Below are positions 1,594 to 27,110 of a DNA stretch of 58,998 bases, piece by piece. The first letter of the stretch is position 1, and each line of letters starts with the position of its first letter. This DNA is from Escherichia phage vB_Eco_SLUR25, in the sequence record LT907986.1; one strand, written 5' to 3'. Made by a program: the position numbers and the translations under genes. The notes beneath the pieces are model-generated. The model saw only the letters and a program-made list of their open reading frames with translations, was not told where the DNA came from and did no database searches.

Positions 1594-2073
1594 TTACGCT
1601 CTTGCTGTACGTGAATGAACTTCGTAAACAACCCAAAGGATAGCGGATGCTGTGAACTTACTTAAGCTCATTGCTACCATTGATCCCGGATTAACAATAC
1701 CTATAATACTTAAGAACACAATGGAGTCAATCGGTACAGCTACCAAAGAGCTGATAAATACGCGTTGATGAAAAGGCTTCTTGGTGACCGTGTATACTAC
1801 ATAATCAGCAAACTCACTAAGCGCAAAAGACGCAACGGATGCAACTACAACCGCAGGATTACCGAACACCCAGCTAAGGATGCAACCAACGATCATTGCA
1901 GGGATAACGCCTTTGCCAGCGTTACGCTGTGCGTAATCACGCAGAACAAAGATAATGCCTACAAAGAAAGCCATCATTGGGACTACGCCAAGTGGCGTAT
2001 TAAGCATCGGAAGGTAGGAAAAGCCCAGGTTTACGAATGTAATTGCAGCCAGATAAGCAACGATAAATTTCAT
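1594..2073 (-). CDS. multi-pass membrane protein, putative queuosine-precursor transporter (YhhQ/DUF165-like, short form)
   Basis: 159 aa, 4-5 hydrophobic helices; segments FFVGIIFVLRDY and VAVPIDSIVFLSIIG resemble recalled E. coli YhhQ; lies between queD and queC. Confidence 0.4.
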   Translation of the reverse strand: MKFIVAYLAAITFVNLGFSYLPMLNTPLGVVPMMAFFVGIIFVLRDYAQRNAGKGVIPAMIVGCILSWVFGNPAVVVASVASFALSEFADYVVYTVTKKPFHQRVFISSLVAVPIDSIVFLSIIGIVNPGSMVAMSLSKFTASAILWVVYEVHSRTARA

Positions 2074-2193
2074 ACTTTTGTTCTCCAGTTTTAACAGCGC
2101 TGTTCGCTGGTTGTTGGGTTTAAAAGCTTTAGTAGTATAGTTGGGTTACCGCACCCTAAACAATGCGCTAGCGGTGCGGTTTTCGCGGTAAGA

Positions 2194-2901
2194 TCAAGCT
2201 TTGCTAATAAATTCGCTGTACCCTTTAGCACGAAGTTTACACGCCGGGCATTCCCCGCAACCATACCCCCAGTCATGCAGAGTGCGGCGGACGCCATTAT
2301 AGCACGTATGGGACTGCTCAATTACTGTGGTTAAGAAACCAACCTTATCCGCCAGCTCAAACGTTTCTGCTTTATTCAAACGCATAAGCGGAGTAACAAA
2401 ATGGATATCTGTTTCATATCCAACGTTTAACGTAGCTTCAAGCAGATCTACAAACTGCTGGCGGCAATCCGGATAACCGCTATAGTCTGTTTCACAAACG
2501 CCTGTAACCACATATCGGGCTCCGACCTTCTGCGCGTAGGCGTGCGCGGTAGTCAGGAAAAGGGCATTACGGTTTGGCACAAAGCTTGCCGGAAGGTTGT
2601 TGTGCTGTTCGTGATGTTCGTTAACATCACCTTCGTTCCCGATTAAAGCACTATTGCCAATCTGTTTCAATGCAGGTAATTCAAAGACAACAAACGGGAC
2701 ATTGTGCTCTTTACAAATTTGATTAGCACAAGCCAGCTCAATGTTATGACGTTGACCGTATGCAAAACCAATAGCGTAGACTTTGTCATAGTTATTAAGT
2801 GCAAGACCTAGACAAGTCACGCTGTCCTGGCCGCCAGACAGGACGACAACGGCGGAGTTATGATTTTTTACAGGGAATACCAGTTTATCTAATTTATTCA
2901 T
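2194..2901 (-). CDS. queC: 7-cyano-7-deazaguanine synthase (QueC), standalone (no amidotransferase fusion)
   Basis: 235 aa; PP-loop SGGQDS near N-terminus; C-terminal Cys cluster C..CGxCxxC. Confidence 0.9.
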   Translation of the reverse strand: MNKLDKLVFPVKNHNSAVVVLSGGQDSVTCLGLALNNYDKVYAIGFAYGQRHNIELACANQICKEHNVPFVVFELPALKQIGNSALIGNEGDVNEHHEQHNNLPASFVPNRNALFLTTAHAYAQKVGARYVVTGVCETDYSGYPDCRQQFVDLLEATLNVGYETDIHFVTPLMRLNKAETFELADKVGFLTTVIEQSHTCYNGVRRTLHDWGYGCGECPACKLRAKGYSEFISKA

Positions 2902-2902
2902 T

Positions 2903-3091
2903 TTAGAAACCTTTAAGGCTAATATTAAGGTTAATGACTACTTGTTCAACTACAGCTTCAGAGGTTACCTGACGCTGGTGTATCTCAAGCTCCGAATGTA
3001 TTTTCTTGGATGCAGCACGACAAATAGCGTCATTCAACTCGTCTTGTAAACGTTGAATTTTCTGCATAAGGATTACAGTTTCTTCATTCAT
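2903..3091 (-). CDS. small hypothetical protein (tandem paralog 1)
   Basis: 62 aa ORF; sequence pattern similar to adjacent 3084..3296 product. Confidence 0.4.
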   Translation of the reverse strand: MNEETVILMQKIQRLQDELNDAICRAASKKIHSELEIHQRQVTSEAVVEQVVINLNISLKGF

Positions 3092-3296
3092 TTACTTCAC
3101 CTTTAATATCACAAGGGTTAATTGTTACGTTAGACATTACAATTGGATGATTGCGCGCTCCAATTGTGCTAACGTGATTAATATCTAATTCTACATGCAC
3201 GCCCTGCATAGTAGCGTGAGCAATTGCAGAATTAAGTTTTTCTACCAGCTCAGTGATCATTTCCTGATGCTGTTTCGCTTCTTCCAAAGTGATCAT
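3084..3296 (-). CDS. small hypothetical protein (tandem paralog 2); start may be the internal Met at 3260
   Basis: 70 aa ORF; ELVEKLNSAIAHATMQGVHVELDINHVS resembles DELNDAICRAASKKIHSELEIHQRQVTS of neighbour. Confidence 0.4.
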   Translation of the reverse strand: MITLEEAKQHQEMITELVEKLNSAIAHATMQGVHVELDINHVSTIGARNHPIVMSNVTINPCDIKGEVNE

Positions 3297-3552
3297 TTCT
3301 TTTCACCTTCACTAATGTTTGTTTATAATCCATACCTTCAAGGTCAACTTCTGCCATTTCACAAAAGTTATCATCTTCCCAGTATGATATCCATTTAGTT
3401 TCACTGTCCATCAACGTTGGCTCATACTCGAATCCGTAAACTGTACCGTCCTGATCCGTAGCCAGCCACCGTACCCATTCAGGGACATCAAGCTTATTAC
3501 CAAAGTATTCAACTTCTTTAGTATGCACAACCTGACTTAACACACGCATCAT
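3250..3552 (-). CDS. hypothetical protein embedded in the 7-deazaguanine cluster
   Basis: 100 aa ORF between queC and queE, acidic, no recognised motif. Confidence 0.45.
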   Translation of the reverse strand: MMRVLSQVVHTKEVEYFGNKLDVPEWVRWLATDQDGTVYGFEYEPTLMDSETKWISYWEDDNFCEMAEVDLEGMDYKQTLVKVKRNDHFGRSETASGNDH

Positions 3553-4256
3553 TCAACCCCGATATATTTGTGAACCTGAAGCTGCAACGTGTACCCGTGT
3601 TTCATACAGCTTTGGACAACGGCTTGGATGTTACTGTGGTTAAGGTCTTCATCCTGCTCGTCCATTGGCTGTAAATATATCTTACCCTTGAAACCCTTCG
3701 GAGGTCTAGCGATAAATGGCGTAGCTTGATGATCTAATGCCTGAAGCGGCAAACCATCTTCCACGTTTACACAGCACGCTTTAAGTACATATTTAAATGC
3801 GTTTGCGCGGTACAGCACAGTAGGATGAATTTTTGAAGTCTTGGGACTACATACAATTACAGGTAACTGGGAAAAGTTCTTAGGTAAAGGCATAGACCCA
3901 TTAGTTTCAATTTGCACCAAATAGCCGCGCGATAACAGTTGTTCAATAAACGGGTTAATTTGCTGACGGAACGGTTCACCCCCAGTGATAACCACAAGTG
4001 AGGTGCTATTGCCTGATTCCAGCTTACGGCTTTCGATTAAACGCATAATATCGACAATATGATAAAGACTACGACCAACAGTATAATCCGTATCACAGCC
4101 AGGACATTGCAGGTTGCACCCAGCAAGACGCACAAATACAGCAGGTTGGCCGCAGAATGGACCTTCACCCTGAATGGTAGAGAATACCGAATGCACGTCT
4201 AAATACATATCGTTTTCTTTAGAACGGGACTCGGGAGCTTGTTGATTAATATTCAT
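3549..4256 (-). CDS. queE: 7-carboxy-7-deazaguanine synthase (QueE), radical SAM
   Basis: 235 aa; radical-SAM Cys triad CNLQCPGC (CxxxCxxC) near N-terminus; overlaps upstream gene by 4 nt. Confidence 0.85.
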   Translation of the reverse strand: MNINQQAPESRSKENDMYLDVHSVFSTIQGEGPFCGQPAVFVRLAGCNLQCPGCDTDYTVGRSLYHIVDIMRLIESRKLESGNSTSLVVITGGEPFRQQINPFIEQLLSRGYLVQIETNGSMPLPKNFSQLPVIVCSPKTSKIHPTVLYRANAFKYVLKACCVNVEDGLPLQALDHQATPFIARPPKGFKGKIYLQPMDEQDEDLNHSNIQAVVQSCMKHGYTLQLQVHKYIGVE

Positions 4257-4278
4257 CTTAAATCCTCTAGTGAAAAAG

Positions 4279-4300
4279 AAAGCGCCTCATTGGGCGCTTT
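4279..4300 (-). terminator. rho-independent terminator-like hairpin after gene 4326..5129
   Basis: Stem AAAGCGCC/GGCGCTTT with 6-nt loop; minus-strand reading is followed by a T5 tract. Confidence 0.5.
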
Positions 4301-4325
4301 CATTATAACGTGATATGTTTTGATA

Positions 4326-5129
4326 TTACAAGCCGTTCAGGGCTTCCGGTACTGGCATAGGTACGCGACCAGTTACACCATTAAACTTCTTCCAACGTGC
4401 ATACTGAGTTTTAACAGTATCTTCGTTCAGACCGTGGCGACCAGCCAGATTCAGAACATAAGAGATCGGAGCAGGCTGACCCAGCGTAGCGCTAATCTGA
4501 TCCATCAGAGCCCAGGCACGACCGCAGGAAGTTTCAGGTTGTGGACGACGAACACCATTCTGTTCAGGCATACGGTTCGCTTCTTTCGCTTTTTCACGTT
4601 CAGCTTTTTCGCGGGCTTTTTCAGCAGCCTTTTCAGCCTGTTTAGCAGCGCGGATCTTGTCTTTGAAGCCTTTGATAGACGAATCCAGTTCGTCAACCAT
4701 GCTCTGCGCAGCAGTCACTGCACCGGACAGATCTTCACCTTTGGATTTTTTAACAACTGCTTTCAGATCTTTCAGAGCATTCTTTAAATGCTTCAGCTGT
4801 TCAGAACCCTTAGATTCTGCTTCCGTAATCTGTTCAACAGTGCTTTCATCGGTAATACCGGATAAAGCAAACTTCACGGTTTCAACTGCCTGGGAAAGAG
4901 CGGTAAATTTATTTTCAGCTTCAGTACGAATTTCAGCTTGTTTCTTTTCGGCGGCAGCTTTTTTCTCTGCTTCTTTTTTCTCTTTTGCTACGCGTGCAGC
5001 TTCAGCGGCAGCGGCTTTTTTAGCTTCTGCGTCGTTAGCAGTAGCTTCTTTCTTTGCAGGCTTAGCAGATTTTGCAGCGGCAGCAGCGGCTGCGGCAGCA
5101 GCGGCTTTCTTATCTTCAATATTACTCAT
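4326..5129 (-). CDS. Ala/Lys/Glu-rich low-complexity protein with a conserved C-terminal domain (paralogous to C-terminus of 20655..21269 product)
   Basis: ATG at 5129 with RBS GGAGTG 6 nt upstream (5138 is GTG); poly-Ala run encoded by GCN repeats near 5075..5110; C-terminus NGVRRP...W...LG.P...TV..QYARWKKFNG. Confidence 0.55.
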   Translation of the reverse strand: MSNIEDKKAAAAAAAAAAAKSAKPAKKEATANDAEAKKAAAAEAARVAKEKKEAEKKAAAEKKQAEIRTEAENKFTALSQAVETVKFALSGITDESTVEQITEAESKGSEQLKHLKNALKDLKAVVKKSKGEDLSGAVTAAQSMVDELDSSIKGFKDKIRAAKQAEKAAEKAREKAEREKAKEANRMPEQNGVRRPQPETSCGRAWALMDQISATLGQPAPISYVLNLAGRHGLNEDTVKTQYARWKKFNGVTGRVPMPVPEALNGL

Positions 5130-5256
5130 TTTCTTCACTCCGAATTATTATGGGTTCGTTTGTTACCAACGGGGTTAAATGTACCAAAGGATTTTGTGAC
5201 ACGCAACCCCTTACATAAACATTTTTAAAAATATTTTTGATCAGGGTTAGAACTTA

Positions 5257-5751
5257 TTAGCTCTTCGCACCTCTGCCCGGTGTCCATGCTGCTTGCAATG
5301 CGGGTCGCTCACAAATGACCCTGGCACCGGAAATAATACTACCCTCCCGTTCAGCATCGTATTTGACACGGGCAGGTTTCCAAAGTCCTTCATCCATTGA
5401 CGGAACGTATTGCCCAATTTGAGGTGAGCAAAAGCCTTGGATATCGTATTCCACACAGAATTCGGCTTGTGCGCTGATTTGGGCGTGATCCAGGATTGTT
5501 TCTGGAAGTTGCGTAAAGTAATCAAACAAAATGCGCTCAACAATTTCCCGTTCATAAGGTGCAGCTCCTAAGTTTTCTGTCAGGTTAATATAAAGCATTT
5601 GAAGATCAACATCTTCAAGATCTTTTAAATCGTTTACTGGTGTTACCAGTGTTGACTCTGGACAACAAATAATTCCAAGTTGGTGTAGTGTCAGCCAATT
5701 GGGATGCTTTGCCAAGAGTTCAAATTTATCTGTATCAATCAGGACGTACAT
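5257..5751 (-). CDS. hypothetical protein
   Basis: 164 aa ORF; ATG at 5751 preceded by AGGGGAT RBS. Confidence 0.5.
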   Translation of the reverse strand: MYVLIDTDKFELLAKHPNWLTLHQLGIICCPESTLVTPVNDLKDLEDVDLQMLYINLTENLGAAPYEREIVERILFDYFTQLPETILDHAQISAQAEFCVEYDIQGFCSPQIGQYVPSMDEGLWKPARVKYDAEREGSIISGARVICERPALQAAWTPGRGAKS

Positions 5752-5772
5752 TGCGATCCCCTATAAATAAGT

Positions 5773-5795
5773 AATGCCCCAATAGTAGGGGCATT
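5773..5795 (-). terminator. terminator-like hairpin between helicase and downstream gene
   Basis: Stem AATGCCCC/GGGGCATT, 7-nt loop, followed on minus strand by a T-rich stretch. Confidence 0.4.
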
Positions 5796-5810
5796 AGATG
5801 TTGAAGTCAA

Positions 5811-7787
5811 TTAGAAAGGAACGTAATCCGGATCATCTACTTGTACAGGGTTAACCACATTGTTCACCGTTATACCTTGCGTATTCTGCGAAACAATATC
5901 GTCCCAGCTTACATCATCGTTATAGCTCGGACCTTCTGTCGTTCCATCCTGACCGTATACTTTAACCTGAATAGCTTCGTCGTCCTGTGGAGCTTCAAAC
6001 TTACCGAAACAAGTACCGTCATAATCATAGTTCAATATCTCAGGCCATTTCTTATTGGTATGAACTTTGATGTATTTTGGTGTTTTAAGCATTGCAGCAA
6101 CATCAAGAGCTTCTTCAATAGTTTGTGGTAAAGGTAAATGTGTCCTTTTCTTCCACCATGCGACAGCTTTACGACCTGCCCAGTCGCCATGAAGCAGAGC
6201 TACCCATTCGCTGAATATTTTACTACCGCAATAATAAGTCACCTTCATTGTTGGAGGTTTAGAGCTGTCATTGCGTTTAGTATGCTTTGCATAAGTCACA
6301 TGCGTAACTTTAAAGTCTTCAACTACTGGAATATCCTGCTTGATCAGGGCTTCCGTACTTGCTGCTTTCTTGAGTTTGGTCTGGAACTTAAACTCATGAC
6401 CGCAAAAGCCTTCTTTAACGTAATCCGTCCCGCGTAGCCTAAATCCTTTCAGATATAATTGTTGAACTTGTTCCTGTGTGACGCTGTCCATTGGGATTGG
6501 TGCGAAGCCACCGCAATAGCGAGCAGATGCATGATTATACGACCCACATACATCGCATTCTTTAACCGGAGCAGTACCAGCACCTTTTTCGCCAGGGCGC
6601 TTGGGTTTAACAGGGTCGTTAATAGGGCCCAAACGGCGCGTATTACCGCTGAAATCCAGTACAAGGCAGTTCTGCTTGGGGCTTGCCGCAATAGCTTGTA
6701 AGCGCCCCTCCTGCGTGGAAAGATCAAAGCCCTCCGCGTACACCGGACGCGTACCGCGACCCAGCATCTGGACCCATAGCACCGCCGACGCAGTGGGGCG
6801 GAGCATGATAATTAAGTCCAGCATTGGATGATCAAAACCTGTGGTTAAGACGTTATTGTTAGTTAATGCTCGAAATTCACCGCGCTTAAACTTCTCAATA
6901 ATCTCGTCACGTTCTTTTGCATCAAGCTTAGAGTGAATACATCCACAGCTAATACCCATATCGTTCAGCATATCACACGCGTCTTTAGCGTGTTCAATAC
7001 CAGAACAAAATATAAGCCAGCTTTGACGGTCTTCACCACATTCAATTGCTTCCTCAAGTGCGCGGAGTGTTGCGTCATCGCGGTTTACCGCACTTTGCAG
7101 CTCACTCTGGATAAACTCACCGCCGCGTTTACCTACCCCGTTGAGGTCCAGCTCCATCTTAGTACGCTTTGGCACAACCGGAAGAAGATAACCTTGCTCC
7201 AGGAACCAGTTGAAGGCTTCCGGAGTAGTTGCATCAAACGTTACCTTATCAAATAACGCATCATCGTCTTCGTTTTCCTTAACAATTGAACCATACCCCA
7301 GTCGATAAGGTGTAGCAGTAAGACCGATGATTTTTAAGTAAGGGTTAACTTCACGCAACGCTGCAAAGAATTTCTTATACATTGTTGCATCACGCGGACT
7401 AATAAGATGCGCTTCGTCCACAAAAATAAGATCAACTTTGCCGAACTTTTTCGGATGCTTAGCAACGGACGCAATCCCTGCAAAGGTAATAAGATTGTAG
7501 ACTTCTTTACGCTTCAAACCCGCGCTGTAAATACCTGCTGGCGCTTCGGGCCAGACTTTCATTAATTTATCATAGTTTTGTGCAATTAACTCTTTGACGT
7601 GAGTTAACATCATTACGCGCTGGTTTGGATACCATTTGTAAAGCAGATCGAGGAACCCCGCGATAACGAGCGATTTTCCTGTCCCTGTTGGTAACAGGAT
7701 CAAAGGGTTCCCCGCGTTACCCTTTTCAGCATCAAAATAGCGGAATACGCTATAAACTGCTTCCTGTTGATAATCGCGGAGCCTCAT
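5811..7787 (-). CDS. superfamily 2 DNA helicase (DEAH-box)
   Basis: Walker A PTGTGKS, motif II VDEAH, later motifs TATP and QMLGRGTR; ATG at 7787 (track start 7793 is TTG). Confidence 0.8.
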   Translation of the reverse strand: MRLRDYQQEAVYSVFRYFDAEKGNAGNPLILLPTGTGKSLVIAGFLDLLYKWYPNQRVMMLTHVKELIAQNYDKLMKVWPEAPAGIYSAGLKRKEVYNLITFAGIASVAKHPKKFGKVDLIFVDEAHLISPRDATMYKKFFAALREVNPYLKIIGLTATPYRLGYGSIVKENEDDDALFDKVTFDATTPEAFNWFLEQGYLLPVVPKRTKMELDLNGVGKRGGEFIQSELQSAVNRDDATLRALEEAIECGEDRQSWLIFCSGIEHAKDACDMLNDMGISCGCIHSKLDAKERDEIIEKFKRGEFRALTNNNVLTTGFDHPMLDLIIMLRPTASAVLWVQMLGRGTRPVYAEGFDLSTQEGRLQAIAASPKQNCLVLDFSGNTRRLGPINDPVKPKRPGEKGAGTAPVKECDVCGSYNHASARYCGGFAPIPMDSVTQEQVQQLYLKGFRLRGTDYVKEGFCGHEFKFQTKLKKAASTEALIKQDIPVVEDFKVTHVTYAKHTKRNDSSKPPTMKVTYYCGSKIFSEWVALLHGDWAGRKAVAWWKKRTHLPLPQTIEEALDVAAMLKTPKYIKVHTNKKWPEILNYDYDGTCFGKFEAPQDDEAIQVKVYGQDGTTEGPSYNDDVSWDDIVSQNTQGITVNNVVNPVQVDDPDYVPF

Positions 7788-7789
7788 AA

Positions 7790-8698
7790 TCAATCTTTCC
7801 CGTAATAATTAGCTACTTGATAGTTTTGACAACCAACTTTCTGCCCTTGCGTATCCACTGCGGCGGAATGGAAATTGCAATACCATGTTCCATCTTCTTT
7901 TGGTTCAAGGAATTGGCATGTGCGGCAGTTTACTTCCGGCATAGTTTTACGCCAGCATAGTGAGGAGTGATCGCACCATTTACATTCGAAGAAAGTGGAA
8001 TCTTTAAATGCGCGGTCCGGAATATCTGTAGCAATAGCAATCTGCACACCACGATCAATATACATGTCCGCGGTAACAGGATCAAACGGAATAATTTCTG
8101 CGTAAACTTCATCGTCATTCTTGTTTACAGCAAGATATAACGCTGCGCCAAGACCTAGTTTTCGCATGTACACGTTCATCTGTACATAGTGCTCAGGTTT
8201 GGCTTCTTTAACACCTTTAGCTTTCAGCTTTTTAAAAGACTTATCGTTATGCGTCTTCATTTCGGTGAGCACAGGCATCCCAGGCTGCACGTCCGGACAA
8301 CCTATAACCACACCATCGCAGGAACCGCCAAAGTGTCCGCCAGCTTCGCTGATACGGAACTGGTGTCCATTTTCGTCCTGCTGATAGACCTGCATACCTG
8401 CCGCAAGAAGCATAGCAATGAAACGCGCTTCTTCCAGATGTCCGCGGTTAAACAGTCGAAGCTGGCGTCCGTCAAACTCTTTGCGTGTAGCCCAGCGATA
8501 TCCATAGAAAAGCTTGCGTGCGCATTGCTGCCCAATAAGGGAAGCGCCTAAGTGACTGCGGTTACCGCTTTCAGGGCGATAAGCGTCTTCAATTGTGGGA
8601 ATGACTACGCCAAGATACTTACGGTAAGTCCCACCCTGATCTTTTTGCACACCGTCATTGATCGCTTGAAGTGTTTTTTCTGCAATATAAATAGCCAT
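7790..8698 (-). CDS. PD-(D/E)xK exonuclease, Cas4-like with Fe-S cysteine cluster
   Basis: 302 aa; D...EMK nuclease-like motif; N-terminal Cys plus C-terminal CxxCx5C (CKWCDHSSLC), the Cas4/RecB-family pattern. Confidence 0.6.
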   Translation of the reverse strand: MAIYIAEKTLQAINDGVQKDQGGTYRKYLGVVIPTIEDAYRPESGNRSHLGASLIGQQCARKLFYGYRWATRKEFDGRQLRLFNRGHLEEARFIAMLLAAGMQVYQQDENGHQFRISEAGGHFGGSCDGVVIGCPDVQPGMPVLTEMKTHNDKSFKKLKAKGVKEAKPEHYVQMNVYMRKLGLGAALYLAVNKNDDEVYAEIIPFDPVTADMYIDRGVQIAIATDIPDRAFKDSTFFECKWCDHSSLCWRKTMPEVNCRTCQFLEPKEDGTWYCNFHSAAVDTQGQKVGCQNYQVANYYGKD

Positions 8699-8763
8699 TG
8701 GAATACCTTAGAAAAATAAGCCGTCTTTCGACGGCTTATGGACACTACAGAGGGAGGGTTATC

Positions 8764-9645
8764 TTACTGCTGCCACGGCGGGACTGCTGCTTGTGCTGGA
8801 TGCGGTTCAGCTTGCTGCTGCGGCTGAGCTTGCTGCTGAGGCGCTGCTGCCTGACCCGGCTGTGCTACCTGCTGCGCCCACGGCTGCTGGGCTGCTTCCG
8901 GTGCTACTGGCTGTTGTACCGGAGCTTGCTGCACTGGCTGCTGTGGTGCTGCGTTTTGAGCAGGATTATCCCACGGCTGCGGTGCGGCATTCTGCCACGG
9001 TTGTGCTGCTGCGCCCTGCTGTGGTGCTGGTTGCTGCACAGGCTGCTGAACTGGTTGCTGTTGCTGCACCGGAGCTTGCTGCTGAGGCGCTTGCTGTTGC
9101 TGTGCAAACGGGTTAGCTGCTGGTTGCTGAGGTGCTGCGCCCGGGAAAGCTGGCTGCTGTGCTGGCGCACCTGCACCGAACGGGTTAGCTACTGCCGCTT
9201 GAGCACCCATTGCTGGAGCACCTGCTTCTTTTTCTGCATACTTAACCGGATCGTTGATGTTAGCATAACCGTTAGGCTCGTTGCTGTCTTCATAACCTTC
9301 CTGAGAACGAACTTTCAGACGCAGGTTCAGCGGAATGTTATGCAGTTGAGCAGGAGTATCCCAGCGAATTACGCCAACCGCATGGGAAAGCGCGCCCAGT
9401 TGTTCGTATGCGATACGCACAGTATCTTCGTTGTCGTTGATAACATTGTAACGAGCAAAGATTTTACGACCTTTAGCAAAACCATCAATGATGCTAAACG
9501 TTACCTGGATCGCCATACCGCCATTTTTGGTCGGTTTAAATTCAGATGCTTCAATTACTGCTTTATACCAACCTTTCGGCAATGCGCCGTAAGAAGGTGC
9601 TTGATAGCTGCTCGCGTCAAAGTGGAAATTAGTTGGCATAGTCAT
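8764..9645 (-). CDS. DUF669-like (SSB-like) recombination-associated protein with long Gln/Pro/Ala-rich C-terminal tail
   Basis: Globular N-terminal ~130 aa followed by ~160 aa of QQP/QPW low complexity; immediately downstream of Sak4-like ATPase with TAATG overlap. Confidence 0.5.
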   Translation of the reverse strand: MTMPTNFHFDASSYQAPSYGALPKGWYKAVIEASEFKPTKNGGMAIQVTFSIIDGFAKGRKIFARYNVINDNEDTVRIAYEQLGALSHAVGVIRWDTPAQLHNIPLNLRLKVRSQEGYEDSNEPNGYANINDPVKYAEKEAGAPAMGAQAAVANPFGAGAPAQQPAFPGAAPQQPAANPFAQQQQAPQQQAPVQQQQPVQQPVQQPAPQQGAAAQPWQNAAPQPWDNPAQNAAPQQPVQQAPVQQPVAPEAAQQPWAQQVAQPGQAAAPQQQAQPQQQAEPHPAQAAVPPWQQ

Positions 9646-10373
9646 TAGTTAATACCTTTCATTTTGTTGATAACAGAACCTAAGTGTGGGACTTCAACCG
9701 CATCTAAACGTCCCGAACGATCCTTAGCGATTGTATTAAAGTCCGGTTGAGTTTGCAAGTAACGATACGAGTTACCTTGCTGATCCTTATTTACATTCAG
9801 ACGAAATACTTCGTCGAAGAAGTAAGGGAGCATTTGCCCCAATTTGGATCCAGGCATAGATGGAGCATACGCGGTAACACCGGAGACTTCATCTTTGTCT
9901 TTGCCCATTTTAGCAGACATATAAACATGTTTGCCAGGAATATCGCGAAATTTACGGATCAGATCTTGCATCTTTTCAAGCAAAGTACCATAAGCTTGAC
10001 GAGGATCTTTCGTTCCCTTTTTCGCGTTGTTTAAACATTGTTCAGCAATTTCGCTCAAGCTGTCAAGCGCAATAGAATCGAAATACTGCTGGTTAGCTGG
10101 AGTTACGCACCACTGATAAGCCGCTTCAACGTCTTCCAGACATTTCACTTCAATTACCGGAATATCGTAAACGATGGGCAAACCCATGTTACCATAAACA
10201 CGGTTAAGGTTTTCCGCTGCAATAGACAACAGACCGGATTCTGCGCTGATTAAAATTGGTTTAGGTAGTGTGGCTACAAGGCTGGTTTTACCCATACCTG
10301 CTTCACCGTAAACCAGAATTTTAACACCTGTGTCCTGCACAACTTGTGAAGACATTTTAATTTCAATGGCCAT
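9645..10373 (-). CDS. Sak4-like RecA-fold ATPase (phage recombination protein)
   Basis: 242 aa; Walker A GEAGMGKTS near N-terminus; size and context typical of phage Sak4/AAA_24. Confidence 0.6.
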   Translation of the reverse strand: MAIEIKMSSQVVQDTGVKILVYGEAGMGKTSLVATLPKPILISAESGLLSIAAENLNRVYGNMGLPIVYDIPVIEVKCLEDVEAAYQWCVTPANQQYFDSIALDSLSEIAEQCLNNAKKGTKDPRQAYGTLLEKMQDLIRKFRDIPGKHVYMSAKMGKDKDEVSGVTAYAPSMPGSKLGQMLPYFFDEVFRLNVNKDQQGNSYRYLQTQPDFNTIAKDRSGRLDAVEVPHLGSVINKMKGIN

Positions 10374-26684: not shown

Positions 26685-27110
26685 ATGTCAGTAAATTTTG
26701 TCAAACAGCCAACTTTAAATACATGCGTTTCTGCGTGTTTGGCAATGATCCTTAATAAACCTGTTGAGAAGGTTATTGAGGAATTTCATAGTCGTTATTA
26801 TAACAACTGGGAAATCACTATCAGCGAATATTTGACTAAAAACGGCGTCCAGCATCATTGTTCAGAAGGTGGTGGACGTGAAACTTTGCATATGGGAGGT
26901 TTGTTCCTGTGCACGGTGCCAAGTCTTAATATTCCTGGCGCATTGCACCAGATTGTGATTGATATGACGGATCACAAGTTTATTGTGCATGATCCAATTA
27001 AAGGATGGGAAGGTAAAAAGTTCTATGTTGGTCCGGATCAAGATCCTGAAGAGCCTGGAGCTTTTATCATTCATACTTGGGTCAAAGACGTTGAAATCCT
27101 GCCTTATTAA
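26685..27110 (+). CDS. papain-like cysteine peptidase (C39-like)
   Basis: N-terminal Q-x5-C in KQPTLNTCVSACLAMIL and downstream His/Asp (FIVHDP), as in C39 peptidases. Confidence 0.45.
   Translation: MSVNFVKQPTLNTCVSACLAMILNKPVEKVIEEFHSRYYNNWEITISEYLTKNGVQHHCSEGGGRETLHMGGLFLCTVPSLNIPGALHQIVIDMTDHKFIVHDPIKGWEGKKFYVGPDQDPEEPGAFIIHTWVKDVEILPY

Follow-up and report, generated by a model that had tools for sequence, protein, structure and literature searches.

A DUF669-type single-stranded DNA (ssDNA)-binding protein (SSB) encoded by Escherichia phage vB_Eco_SLUR25 (sequence record LT907986.1) carries a long C-terminal tail that combines a linker predicted to be disordered with a short, neutral, Trp-based tip and most likely recruits a phage partner to SSB-coated ssDNA. 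The gene lies on the minus strand of the 58,998-nucleotide stretch that we analysed (hereafter, the window), and its features are collected in Table 1. The tails of SSBs act as hubs around which the proteins of replication, repair and recombination are organised on ssDNA, and to our knowledge the acidic ...DDDIPF tip is the only tail code that is well understood. A preliminary description of this DNA had likened the tail to the partner-recruiting C-termini of bacterial SSBs; a conserved tip on a non-conserved linker and the precedent of phage HK620 (PMC5928155) lend support to this comparison.

The DUF669-like nature of the protein, proposed at the same time, is borne out by Pfam: PF05037 matches residues 8–144 (E = 2.4e-14; 54.1 bits for a cut-off of 21) and the match spans positions 2–138 of the 138 positions of the profile. 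Among the PHROGs, phrog_13350 matches the SSB over its full length, and the weaker matches (phrog_6015, 378 and 7778) are all annotated 'single strand DNA binding protein'. An AlphaFold2 model of the full-length protein, computed from a 75-sequence alignment, has a predicted local distance difference test (pLDDT) above 90 over most of residues 21–140, where five strands and one helix are arranged as beta-beta-beta-alpha-beta-beta. The top Foldseek match in the PDB is PrgE (8s4s/8s4t; E = 3.5e-6, probability 1.0, template modelling score 0.63 on the target), followed by bacterial SSBs (E around 1e-2). From the model, the N-terminal domain would be an OB fold of the ssDNA-binding type, which presumably binds ssDNA. 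The protein seems to stand alone in this role: the best match of a tblastn search of the window with E. coli SSB had an E value of 0.53, the whole proteome not having been profiled, and there is no other annotated SSB in 25 kb of the replication region of the related phage CAjan.

The tail covers residues 141–293, i.e., 153 residues encoded at window positions 8767–9225. Gln (48), Ala (41), Pro (31) and Val (9) account for 84% of it, Cys, Ile, Lys, Leu, Arg, Ser, Thr and Tyr are absent, and three Asp or Glu residues, none of them among the last 12 residues, give it a net charge of -3. Its entropy is 2.58 bits, compared with 4.13 bits for the N-terminal domain. The preliminary description was thus right about the composition but slightly generous about the extent, since the 160 or so residues and the start at position 9250 (residue 133) exceed the biased part. 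It had also seen periodic Trp motifs. Four Trp do punctuate the tail, each preceded by Pro (three internal QPW and a PPW at residues 289–291), but their gaps of 8, 31 and 35 residues are not periodic. In all, the tail has seven aromatic residues, at positions 156, 167, 180, 217, 225, 256 and 291. The protein ends in ...HPAQAAVPPWQQ, i.e., …A-V-P-P-W-Q-Q, the tip peptide being AEPHPAQAAVPPWQQ, and no other protein of the window has a C-terminal PPW or QPW motif in a comparable context. The AlphaFold2 model gives residues 141–293 a pLDDT of 40–58 and no secondary structure, so that the tail is predicted to be disordered, in line with the flexibility that had been suggested for it.

The DNA of the tail is compositionally biased, with a GC content of 62% (45% in the window) and CAG, GCA, CAA and CCG as the dominant codons. 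It had been described as repetitive, and is so only weakly: Tandem Repeats Finder (TRF) reports two arrays that are short and imperfect, one of 18 nt x 2.3 copies and one of 12 nt x 2.8 copies, the families of direct repeats are 60–80% identical, and neither TRF nor the analysis of direct repeats found a long perfect repeat in the tail DNA that could confound assembly.

The tail is conserved among close relatives. The 1.2 kb around it are 100% identical to Escherichia phage vB_Eco_SLUR63 (LR025196.1) and 93–99% identical to 32 other phage genomes, the majority of which are classified as Seuratvirus; the matches include CAjan, Seurat and slur01, as well as the BASEL phages KurtStettler, SeppeHuegi, VogelGryff, GottfriedDienst and WildeMaa. 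We extracted the orthologues from eight Seuratvirus genomes in GenBank and from three contigs of IMG/VR. They are 277–296 residues long, except for one metagenomic variant of 262 residues, and the tail thus varies in length between isolates, as had been anticipated. All indels are multiples of three and confined to the Q/P/V spacers, and none of the orthologues examined has a frameshift. In phage Greed, for example, a deletion of 54 nt in the tail is flanked by the direct repeat CAGCAGCC, a microhomology. The seven aromatic residues of the tail (three Phe and four Trp) and its last 13 residues are retained in 12 orthologues, identical or nearly so (one internal QPW reads PPW in the orthologue L002). 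Summed over pairs, the tail has a ratio of nonsynonymous to synonymous differences (pN/pS) of 0.096 and the N-terminal domain one of 0.053, with similar synonymous values (pS of 0.196 and 0.183, respectively). Judged from these sequence comparisons, the tail is real and under purifying selection.

The tip, rather than the linker, is what the wider family shares. A word-indexed search returned 427 homologues, of which the best 120 were analysed, and a full HMMER scan with the N-terminal domain alone gave 5,143 clusters (at 50% identity) with an E value of 1e-3 or less, 1,431 of them at E <= 1e-10; we checked a further 141 representatives at 50% identity, the new top ones among these 1,431 clusters. 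The N-terminal domains of the 120 homologues are 35–50% identical to the query and their tails cannot be aligned, but 117 of them have PPW within the last 15 residues. The 141 representatives show the same trend: 106 have PPW, 13 another x-P-W and 17 P-[AS]-W or a similar motif, such that a Trp lies within the last 16 residues in 136. Classical acidic ends are found in two (..DDVPPFE and ..DDDSDLPF), and three have no such tip, two of which are only 130 and 161 residues long and apparently truncated. Altogether, a tip of the form A-[TV]-P-P-W-[AQM]-Q, placed 2–10 residues from the C-terminus, occurs in about 90% of some 260 distant homologues. A profile of 239 non-redundant tails anchored on the last Trp reads A(58%)-Q(49%)-x-A(54%)-[T/V]-P(93%)-P(92%)-W-[A/Q/M]-Q, and W291 is an invariant column of the family alignment. 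The internal Trp stand in a different context, [A/Q]-Q-P-W-[Q/A]-Q. Because acidic tips are found at the same position in a few proteins of this OB clade, the acidic Pro-Phe tips and the Trp tips appear from their sequences to be interchangeable and to occupy equivalent positions.

The linkers, by contrast, differ widely. The 239 non-redundant tails are 19–214 residues long (median 141), and their linkers come in Q/P/A, G/Q/P, N/G/Q and S/T/A/G flavours. JenP2 (Nonagvirus) has a Q-rich linker with GF/FG motifs and the tip TPPWKR; DLP2 (Septimatrevirus) and RcThunderbird (Titanvirus) have a G/Q/P linker with repeated GGW, resembling the E. coli SSB linker, and the tip PWGQR; Halfdan (Lokivirus) has an N/G/Q linker with GW repeats and the tip PAWGQPR; and BP63, ZCSE2 and fHy-Eco03 have short S/T/A/G tails ending in APWEE or APWNQ. 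The tip persists in members with short tails and no internal aromatics (BP63, ZCSE2 and a Vibrio phage). Asp and Glu make up 1.7% of the tail residues among the relatives, and most of the approximately 260 relatives have no acidic tail. The aromatic residues also follow a pattern: Phe is enriched in the proximal 30% of the 239 tails and Trp in the middle and at the tip, and in 93% of 202 tails the gaps between aromatics are more even than in shuffled tails (coefficient of variation of the gaps below the shuffle mean; mean z of -1.1). The even spacing of Phe and Trp suggests that they add a multivalent role, in cooperativity or condensate-like clustering. The phages with a Trp tip infect Escherichia, Pseudomonas, Stenotrophomonas, Rhizobium, Rhodobacter and Vibrio, and the group includes Queuovirinae (Seuratvirus, Nonagvirus), Septimatrevirus, Lokivirus, Rosemountvirus and Titanvirus, with several phages of the BASEL collection. 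In five distant homologues (P0029, P0033, P0063, P0067 and L005), two tandem copies of the tip occur at the C-terminus, e.g., ...ATPPWMQQ...ATPPWAQP; tip duplications may therefore be the origin of the internal QPW motifs in the Seuratvirus tail.

Several known systems help to place this protein. DUF669 has been linked to the SSB of phage N4 and its members proposed to be OB-fold SSBs, for which acidic C-terminal tails were noted as typical (Kazlauskas et al. 2016, PMC4889955); the SSB described here lacks such a tail. The DUF669 protein of HK620 is a genuine SSB, and sak4 genes have an ssb neighbour in up to 80% of cases. Annealing and recombineering by Sak4 are both stimulated by the HK620 SSB, whose C-terminal hexapeptide, NDYPPF, is required for Sak4 to bind SSB-coated ssDNA and for annealing to be stimulated (Hutinet et al. 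2018, PMC5928155). Like the HK620 SSB (HkaK/Abc1), the protein studied here has a DUF669 OB domain and its gene is directly downstream of a gene for a Sak4-type ATPase. Both tails end in Pro-Pro-aromatic, PPF in HK620 and PPW here. The HK620 SSB has 195 residues and a short charged tail ending in ...DDYGYSQNDYPPF; this tail of about 40 residues is acidic and has Phe as its last residue, whereas the one analysed here has 153 residues, is uncharged and holds seven aromatics. Compared with NDYPPF, the tip has Trp for Phe, no acidic residues and QQ after the Trp (2–10 residues in relatives). The module described here also differs from that of HK620 in adding a Cas4-type exonuclease and a superfamily 2 (SF2) helicase, and in belonging to a virulent phage.

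The comparison extends to bacterial SSBs. In E. coli SSB, the recruitment of partners falls to an acidic tip, and a disordered Q/G/P linker contributes to cooperativity and phase separation (PMC7584906, PMC12143593); condensation is tuned by the aromatic and positively charged residues of this linker (PMC12143593). The phage protein shares with bacterial SSBs an OB fold, a low-complexity, Q/P-rich disordered linker of non-conserved length and sequence with a few aromatics, and a short conserved tip. It differs in that its OB domain is of the DUF669/PrgE type rather than the tetrameric type, its linker is about 2.5 times longer than that of E. coli SSB, Ala- rather than Gly-rich and devoid of Arg and Lys, and its tip is neutral, Trp-based and not C-terminal, whereas that of E. 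coli SSB (...DFDDDIPF) is acidic and ends in Pro-Phe-COOH. The Pro-Pro-aromatic core nevertheless parallels the PPF of HK620 and the IPF of E. coli. Since the tip is neutral and its aromatic residue lies 2–10 residues before the end, the free-carboxylate recognition used by partners of the SSB C-terminus cannot apply. PrgE of plasmid pCF10, an OB protein of phage origin, binds ssDNA in a beads-on-a-string manner (8s4s/8s4t; PMC11137577). Among solved structures it lies nearest to the predicted N-terminal domain, at a sequence identity of 12%, but has 144 residues and neither a long disordered tail nor a Trp tip. The P/Q-rich region of E. coli ZipA was the sole match when the PDB was searched by sequence, with the protein alone or with the family profile. 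ZipA (PDB 9iue) was rejected as a homologue of the tail, the match being compositional (E = 7.5e-5 with the family profile; bias of 41.6 for 25.3 bits). Its tether, whose P/Q-rich tract serves as an unstructured spacer, is Pro/Gln/Ala-rich like the tail described here; unlike the SSB, ZipA is anchored in the membrane and lacks both a PPW tip and Trp motifs that punctuate the tract. Bas52_0087, an SSB-like phage protein that triggers DRT10 and has two OB folds and an FDDDIPF tip (bioRxiv 10.64898/2026.04.29.721553), was set aside as a different protein. Our literature search on PPW and phage SSBs returned no paper, and we found no description of a Trp-based SSB tip. The protein is a variation on the design of OB domain, linker and tip, and not a new kind of system.

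The genetic neighbourhood points to candidate partners. The SSB gene belongs to a co-oriented module that comprises, in this order, a ligase-like gene, a Sak4-like AAA_24 ATPase, the SSB, a Cas4-domain exonuclease and an SF2 helicase. The AAA_24/Sak4-like gene is directly upstream of the SSB gene at every locus examined, in at least eight phage genera and in metagenomic contigs, and the exonuclease and the helicase are usually downstream in related loci. We consider the Sak4-like ATPase as the most likely candidate. In the mechanism that we propose, the OB domains would coat ssDNA with their tails projecting from the filament, and the PPW tip would insert its Trp into a hydrophobic pocket on a phage protein of replication or recombination. 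In this way the Sak4-like ATPase would be loaded onto ssDNA covered by SSB, to serve in annealing and in replication that depends on recombination, and the Cas4-type exonuclease and SF2 helicase of the same operon would act together with the loaded ATPase. The internal QPW and NPF motifs might provide weaker, multivalent aromatic contacts, between SSBs, between SSB and partner, or in condensate-type clustering. The Q/P/A spacers would set only reach and flexibility, and would for this reason tolerate slippage indels.

Several points weigh against the recruitment of a phage partner by the tip. We infer the binding of the tip to a partner, and the identity of this partner, rather than observe them. 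Sak4 genes adjoin SSBs with Trp tips and SSBs with acidic tips alike, and the exonuclease and the helicase are neighbours as constant as Sak4; genomic context was therefore rejected as a means to discriminate the partner, since it cannot name one among the three. BLASTP of the SSB and of the Sak4-like protein against their HK620 counterparts gave nothing significant beyond the P-loop. The two pairs being too remote for BLAST, the link rests on shared Pfam and PHROG families and on gene order, and the HK620 precedent is an analogy. The tip is unlike every characterised SSB tip, in being non-acidic and in having an aromatic residue that is not terminal. Finally, its pLDDT is only about 55 in the full-length model, and an AlphaFold2 model of an artificial fusion of Sak4 and tail, computed without alignment, was uninformative, with a mean pLDDT of 38 and Sak4 itself unfolded.

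The tail could instead act mainly on the SSB itself, with the aromatics and the tip binding a neighbouring SSB or the OB cleft to give cooperativity on ssDNA, auto-inhibition or condensates in which replication and recombination proteins would be gathered, as has been proposed for the E. coli SSB linker, and no specific partner. This explanation, which overlaps with the recruitment model rather than excluding it, draws on the even spacing of aromatics in a polar, uncharged Q/P/A tract, which is the pattern of phase-separating low-complexity domains, and on the linker of E. coli SSB, which is rich in Q, G and P, contains W136 and F148, and drives liquid-liquid phase separation tuned by its aromatic and positively charged residues (PMC7584906, PMC12143593). 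The sister lineages represented by DLP2, RcThunderbird and Halfdan have GGW repeats like those of E. coli SSB, and the internal Trp motifs resemble the tip. However, conservation is far stronger at the tip than at the internal motifs, and the tip keeps PPW and not QPW and survives in short tails that lack internal aromatics, which argues for a specific docking site; moreover, AlphaFold2 gave no confident placement of the tip on the OB domain. We regard action on the SSB itself as rather improbable as the main role of the tail. It is less plausible still that the Trp tip recruits host proteins, in the way phage SSBs with DDDIPF-like tips use the host SSB interactome. Other SSB-like phage proteins do carry host-like tips, such as the FDDDIPF of Bas52_0087 (bioRxiv 10.64898/2026.04.29.721553), and Trp tips occur on phages of many proteobacterial hosts. 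Yet host SSB-interacting proteins recognise acidic residues and a C-terminal Pro-Phe carboxylate, neither of which the tip has, and this tip is the same across hosts of six genera, where the constant co-inherited element is the module of Sak4, SSB, exonuclease and helicase; we deem recruitment of E. coli proteins unlikely. A tentative extension of partner recruitment, possible but short of probable, is that the DUF669 SSBs with a Trp tip use a second, host-insulated code: the neutral, internal A-[TV]-P-P-W would recruit only the phage Sak4, exonuclease and helicase and be invisible to host proteins that bind the SSB C-terminus, while the aromatic linker would form a multivalent scaffold or condensate organising a phage recombination and replication compartment.

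Two further explanations concern the DNA rather than the protein. The CAG/GCN/CCN-biased sequence with its short imperfect repeats, the indels at microhomologies and the variable length could suggest a functionless slippage expansion, or an assembly artefact in which a repeat was collapsed or expanded, an error that the preliminary description had named as a way to refute its account. But the region occurs in 33 independently sequenced genomes at 93–100% identity and has no long perfect repeat, and the orthologues examined are free of frameshifts. The indels in the spacers are in frame, the aromatics and the tip are kept and pN/pS is low, at 0.096, which excludes an assembly artefact and a neutral product of slippage alike; we give this explanation very little weight. 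The overlapping open reading frames (ORFs) in other frames deserve even less. Their lengths (316, 107 and 90 residues) and the fact that the frame of 107 residues is open in all 12 relatives could be taken to indicate a real gene, but the antisense ORF of 316 residues carries one or two stops in 7 of the 12 relatives, and it is open only for want of TTA, CTA and TCA codons in the SSB gene. The products are Leu/Cys/Arg-rich or Ala/Leu-rich, as a consequence of base composition. The pS of the sense frame is not lower in the tail (0.196) than in the N-terminal domain (0.183), and there is thus no sign of a second constrained frame. On the stops in relatives and the undepressed pS, we rejected these ORFs as genes, the idea being barely credible, and agree with the earlier view of the long opposite-strand ORFs as spurious by-products of composition.

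Table 1. Location of the SSB gene, the parts of its product, neighbouring genes and ORFs in other frames (positions in the window).
Feature	Position	Strand	Basis or remark
Complete coding sequence of the DUF669-type phage SSB, 293 residues and stop	8764..9645	-	ORF list, Pfam PF05037, PHROGs
Predicted OB-fold domain, residues ~8-140	9226..9624	-	AlphaFold2, Foldseek
Predicted disordered Q/A/P-rich linker, residues 141-280	8806..9225	-	Composition, entropy, pLDDT, spacer indels, pN/pS
Proximal Phe motifs NPF 154-156, FPG 167-169, NPF 178-180	9106..9186	-	All three Phe retained in the 12 Seuratvirus orthologues
Three internal QPW motifs, Q215-W217, Q223-W225, Q254-W256	8878..9003	-	Kept in 12 orthologues
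C-terminal tip PHPAQAAVPPWQQ, residues 281-293	8767..8805	-	PPW conservation across homologues
Sak4-like AAA_24 ATPase gene, directly upstream of the SSB gene	9645..10373	-	Pfam AAA_24, E 1.2e-27; phrog_124 'Sak4-like ssDNA annealing protein', E 1.7e-59
Cas4-domain exonuclease gene, downstream	7790..8698	-	phrog_1990, E 3.4e-118; position conserved in JenP2, DLP2, BP63, CAjan
SF2 helicase gene (ResIII/Helicase_C), fourth module member	5811..7793	-	Pfam; conserved position
Strong terminator-like hairpin, 10-bp stem: ATAAGCCGTC-GAAA-GACGGCTTAT, then TTTTTCT (GAAA is the loop)	8716..8739	-	25 nt past the stop codon of the SSB gene, ahead of the exonuclease gene
Spurious antisense ORF, 316 residues, in phase with the SSB codons	8698..9648	+	Stops in relatives
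Spurious antisense ORF, 107 residues, from CAG/GCN/CCN bias	8793..9116	+	pS comparison
Spurious ORF, 90 residues	8904..9176	-	ORF list

The stop codon of the Sak4-like gene (TAA) overlaps the ATG of the SSB gene as TAATG (window positions 9643–9647, minus strand), which suggests that the two are translationally coupled. Phage SA126VB has a rho-independent terminator annotated at the site of the terminator-like hairpin; the hairpin may set a higher ratio of Sak4 and SSB to exonuclease and helicase expression. The exonuclease has no Pfam match at E <= 0.01, and its C-terminal part is Cys-rich (CKWC..C..C..C), consistent with a Fe-S cluster of the Cas4 type; its start overlaps the stop region of the helicase gene (7790–7793). 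In CAjan (NC_028776.1, positions 1998–7658), the region syntenic with the window below about 5800 holds a 7-deazaguanine DNA-modification cluster directly downstream of the helicase, of the queuosine type (QueC, QueD, QueE, FolE and a TGT/DpdA-like protein). Genes for QueC and radical-SAM proteins also flank the module in distant contigs encoding SSBs with Trp tips (L024–L026), so that the SSB module and the modification cluster travel together. In Escherichia phage vB_EcoM_fHy-Eco03 (MW602648.1, positions 461–1983), the homologues of the Sak4-like protein, the DUF669 SSB and the exonuclease are annotated as 'putative structural protein' and as virion-associated by liquid chromatography-tandem mass spectrometry of phage particles, which is unexpected for replication and recombination proteins and could reflect carry-over or real packaging.

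The window and LR025196.1 both have 58,998 bp and are offset by 18,502 bp (window position 8600 is position 27102 of the record), which corresponds to a circular permutation of the deposited sequence. The annotation of KS_W4 starts the SSB at a second in-frame ATG, two codons downstream of the first. In Seuratvirus records the gene is mostly named 'hypothetical protein'. Wrong names include 'dihydrolipoamide acyltransferase component' in Pseudomonas phage Quinobequin-P09 and 'multimodular transpeptidase-transglycosylase' in Shewanella phage S0112, the latter being also the UniRef name for phage MiCath; in records such as those of Greed and CSP1C, 'methyl-accepting chemotaxis protein' and 'cell division protein FtsK' are given to the SSB gene or to the adjacent Sak4-like gene. 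We attribute the recurrent misnaming of the SSB ('transpeptidase', 'FtsK', 'acyltransferase') to its low-complexity tail.

These results indicate that a large group of phage SSBs uses a Trp-based tip on linkers of very variable length. A single Trp in a tip of 13 residues offers a testable handle on the loading of Sak4-type recombinases, which is also relevant to recombineering tools built from Sak4/SSB pairs. The family further provides a natural series of linkers with which to test the effects of linker length and aromatic patterning. Its main value lies in the family-wide definition of a non-acidic Trp tip.

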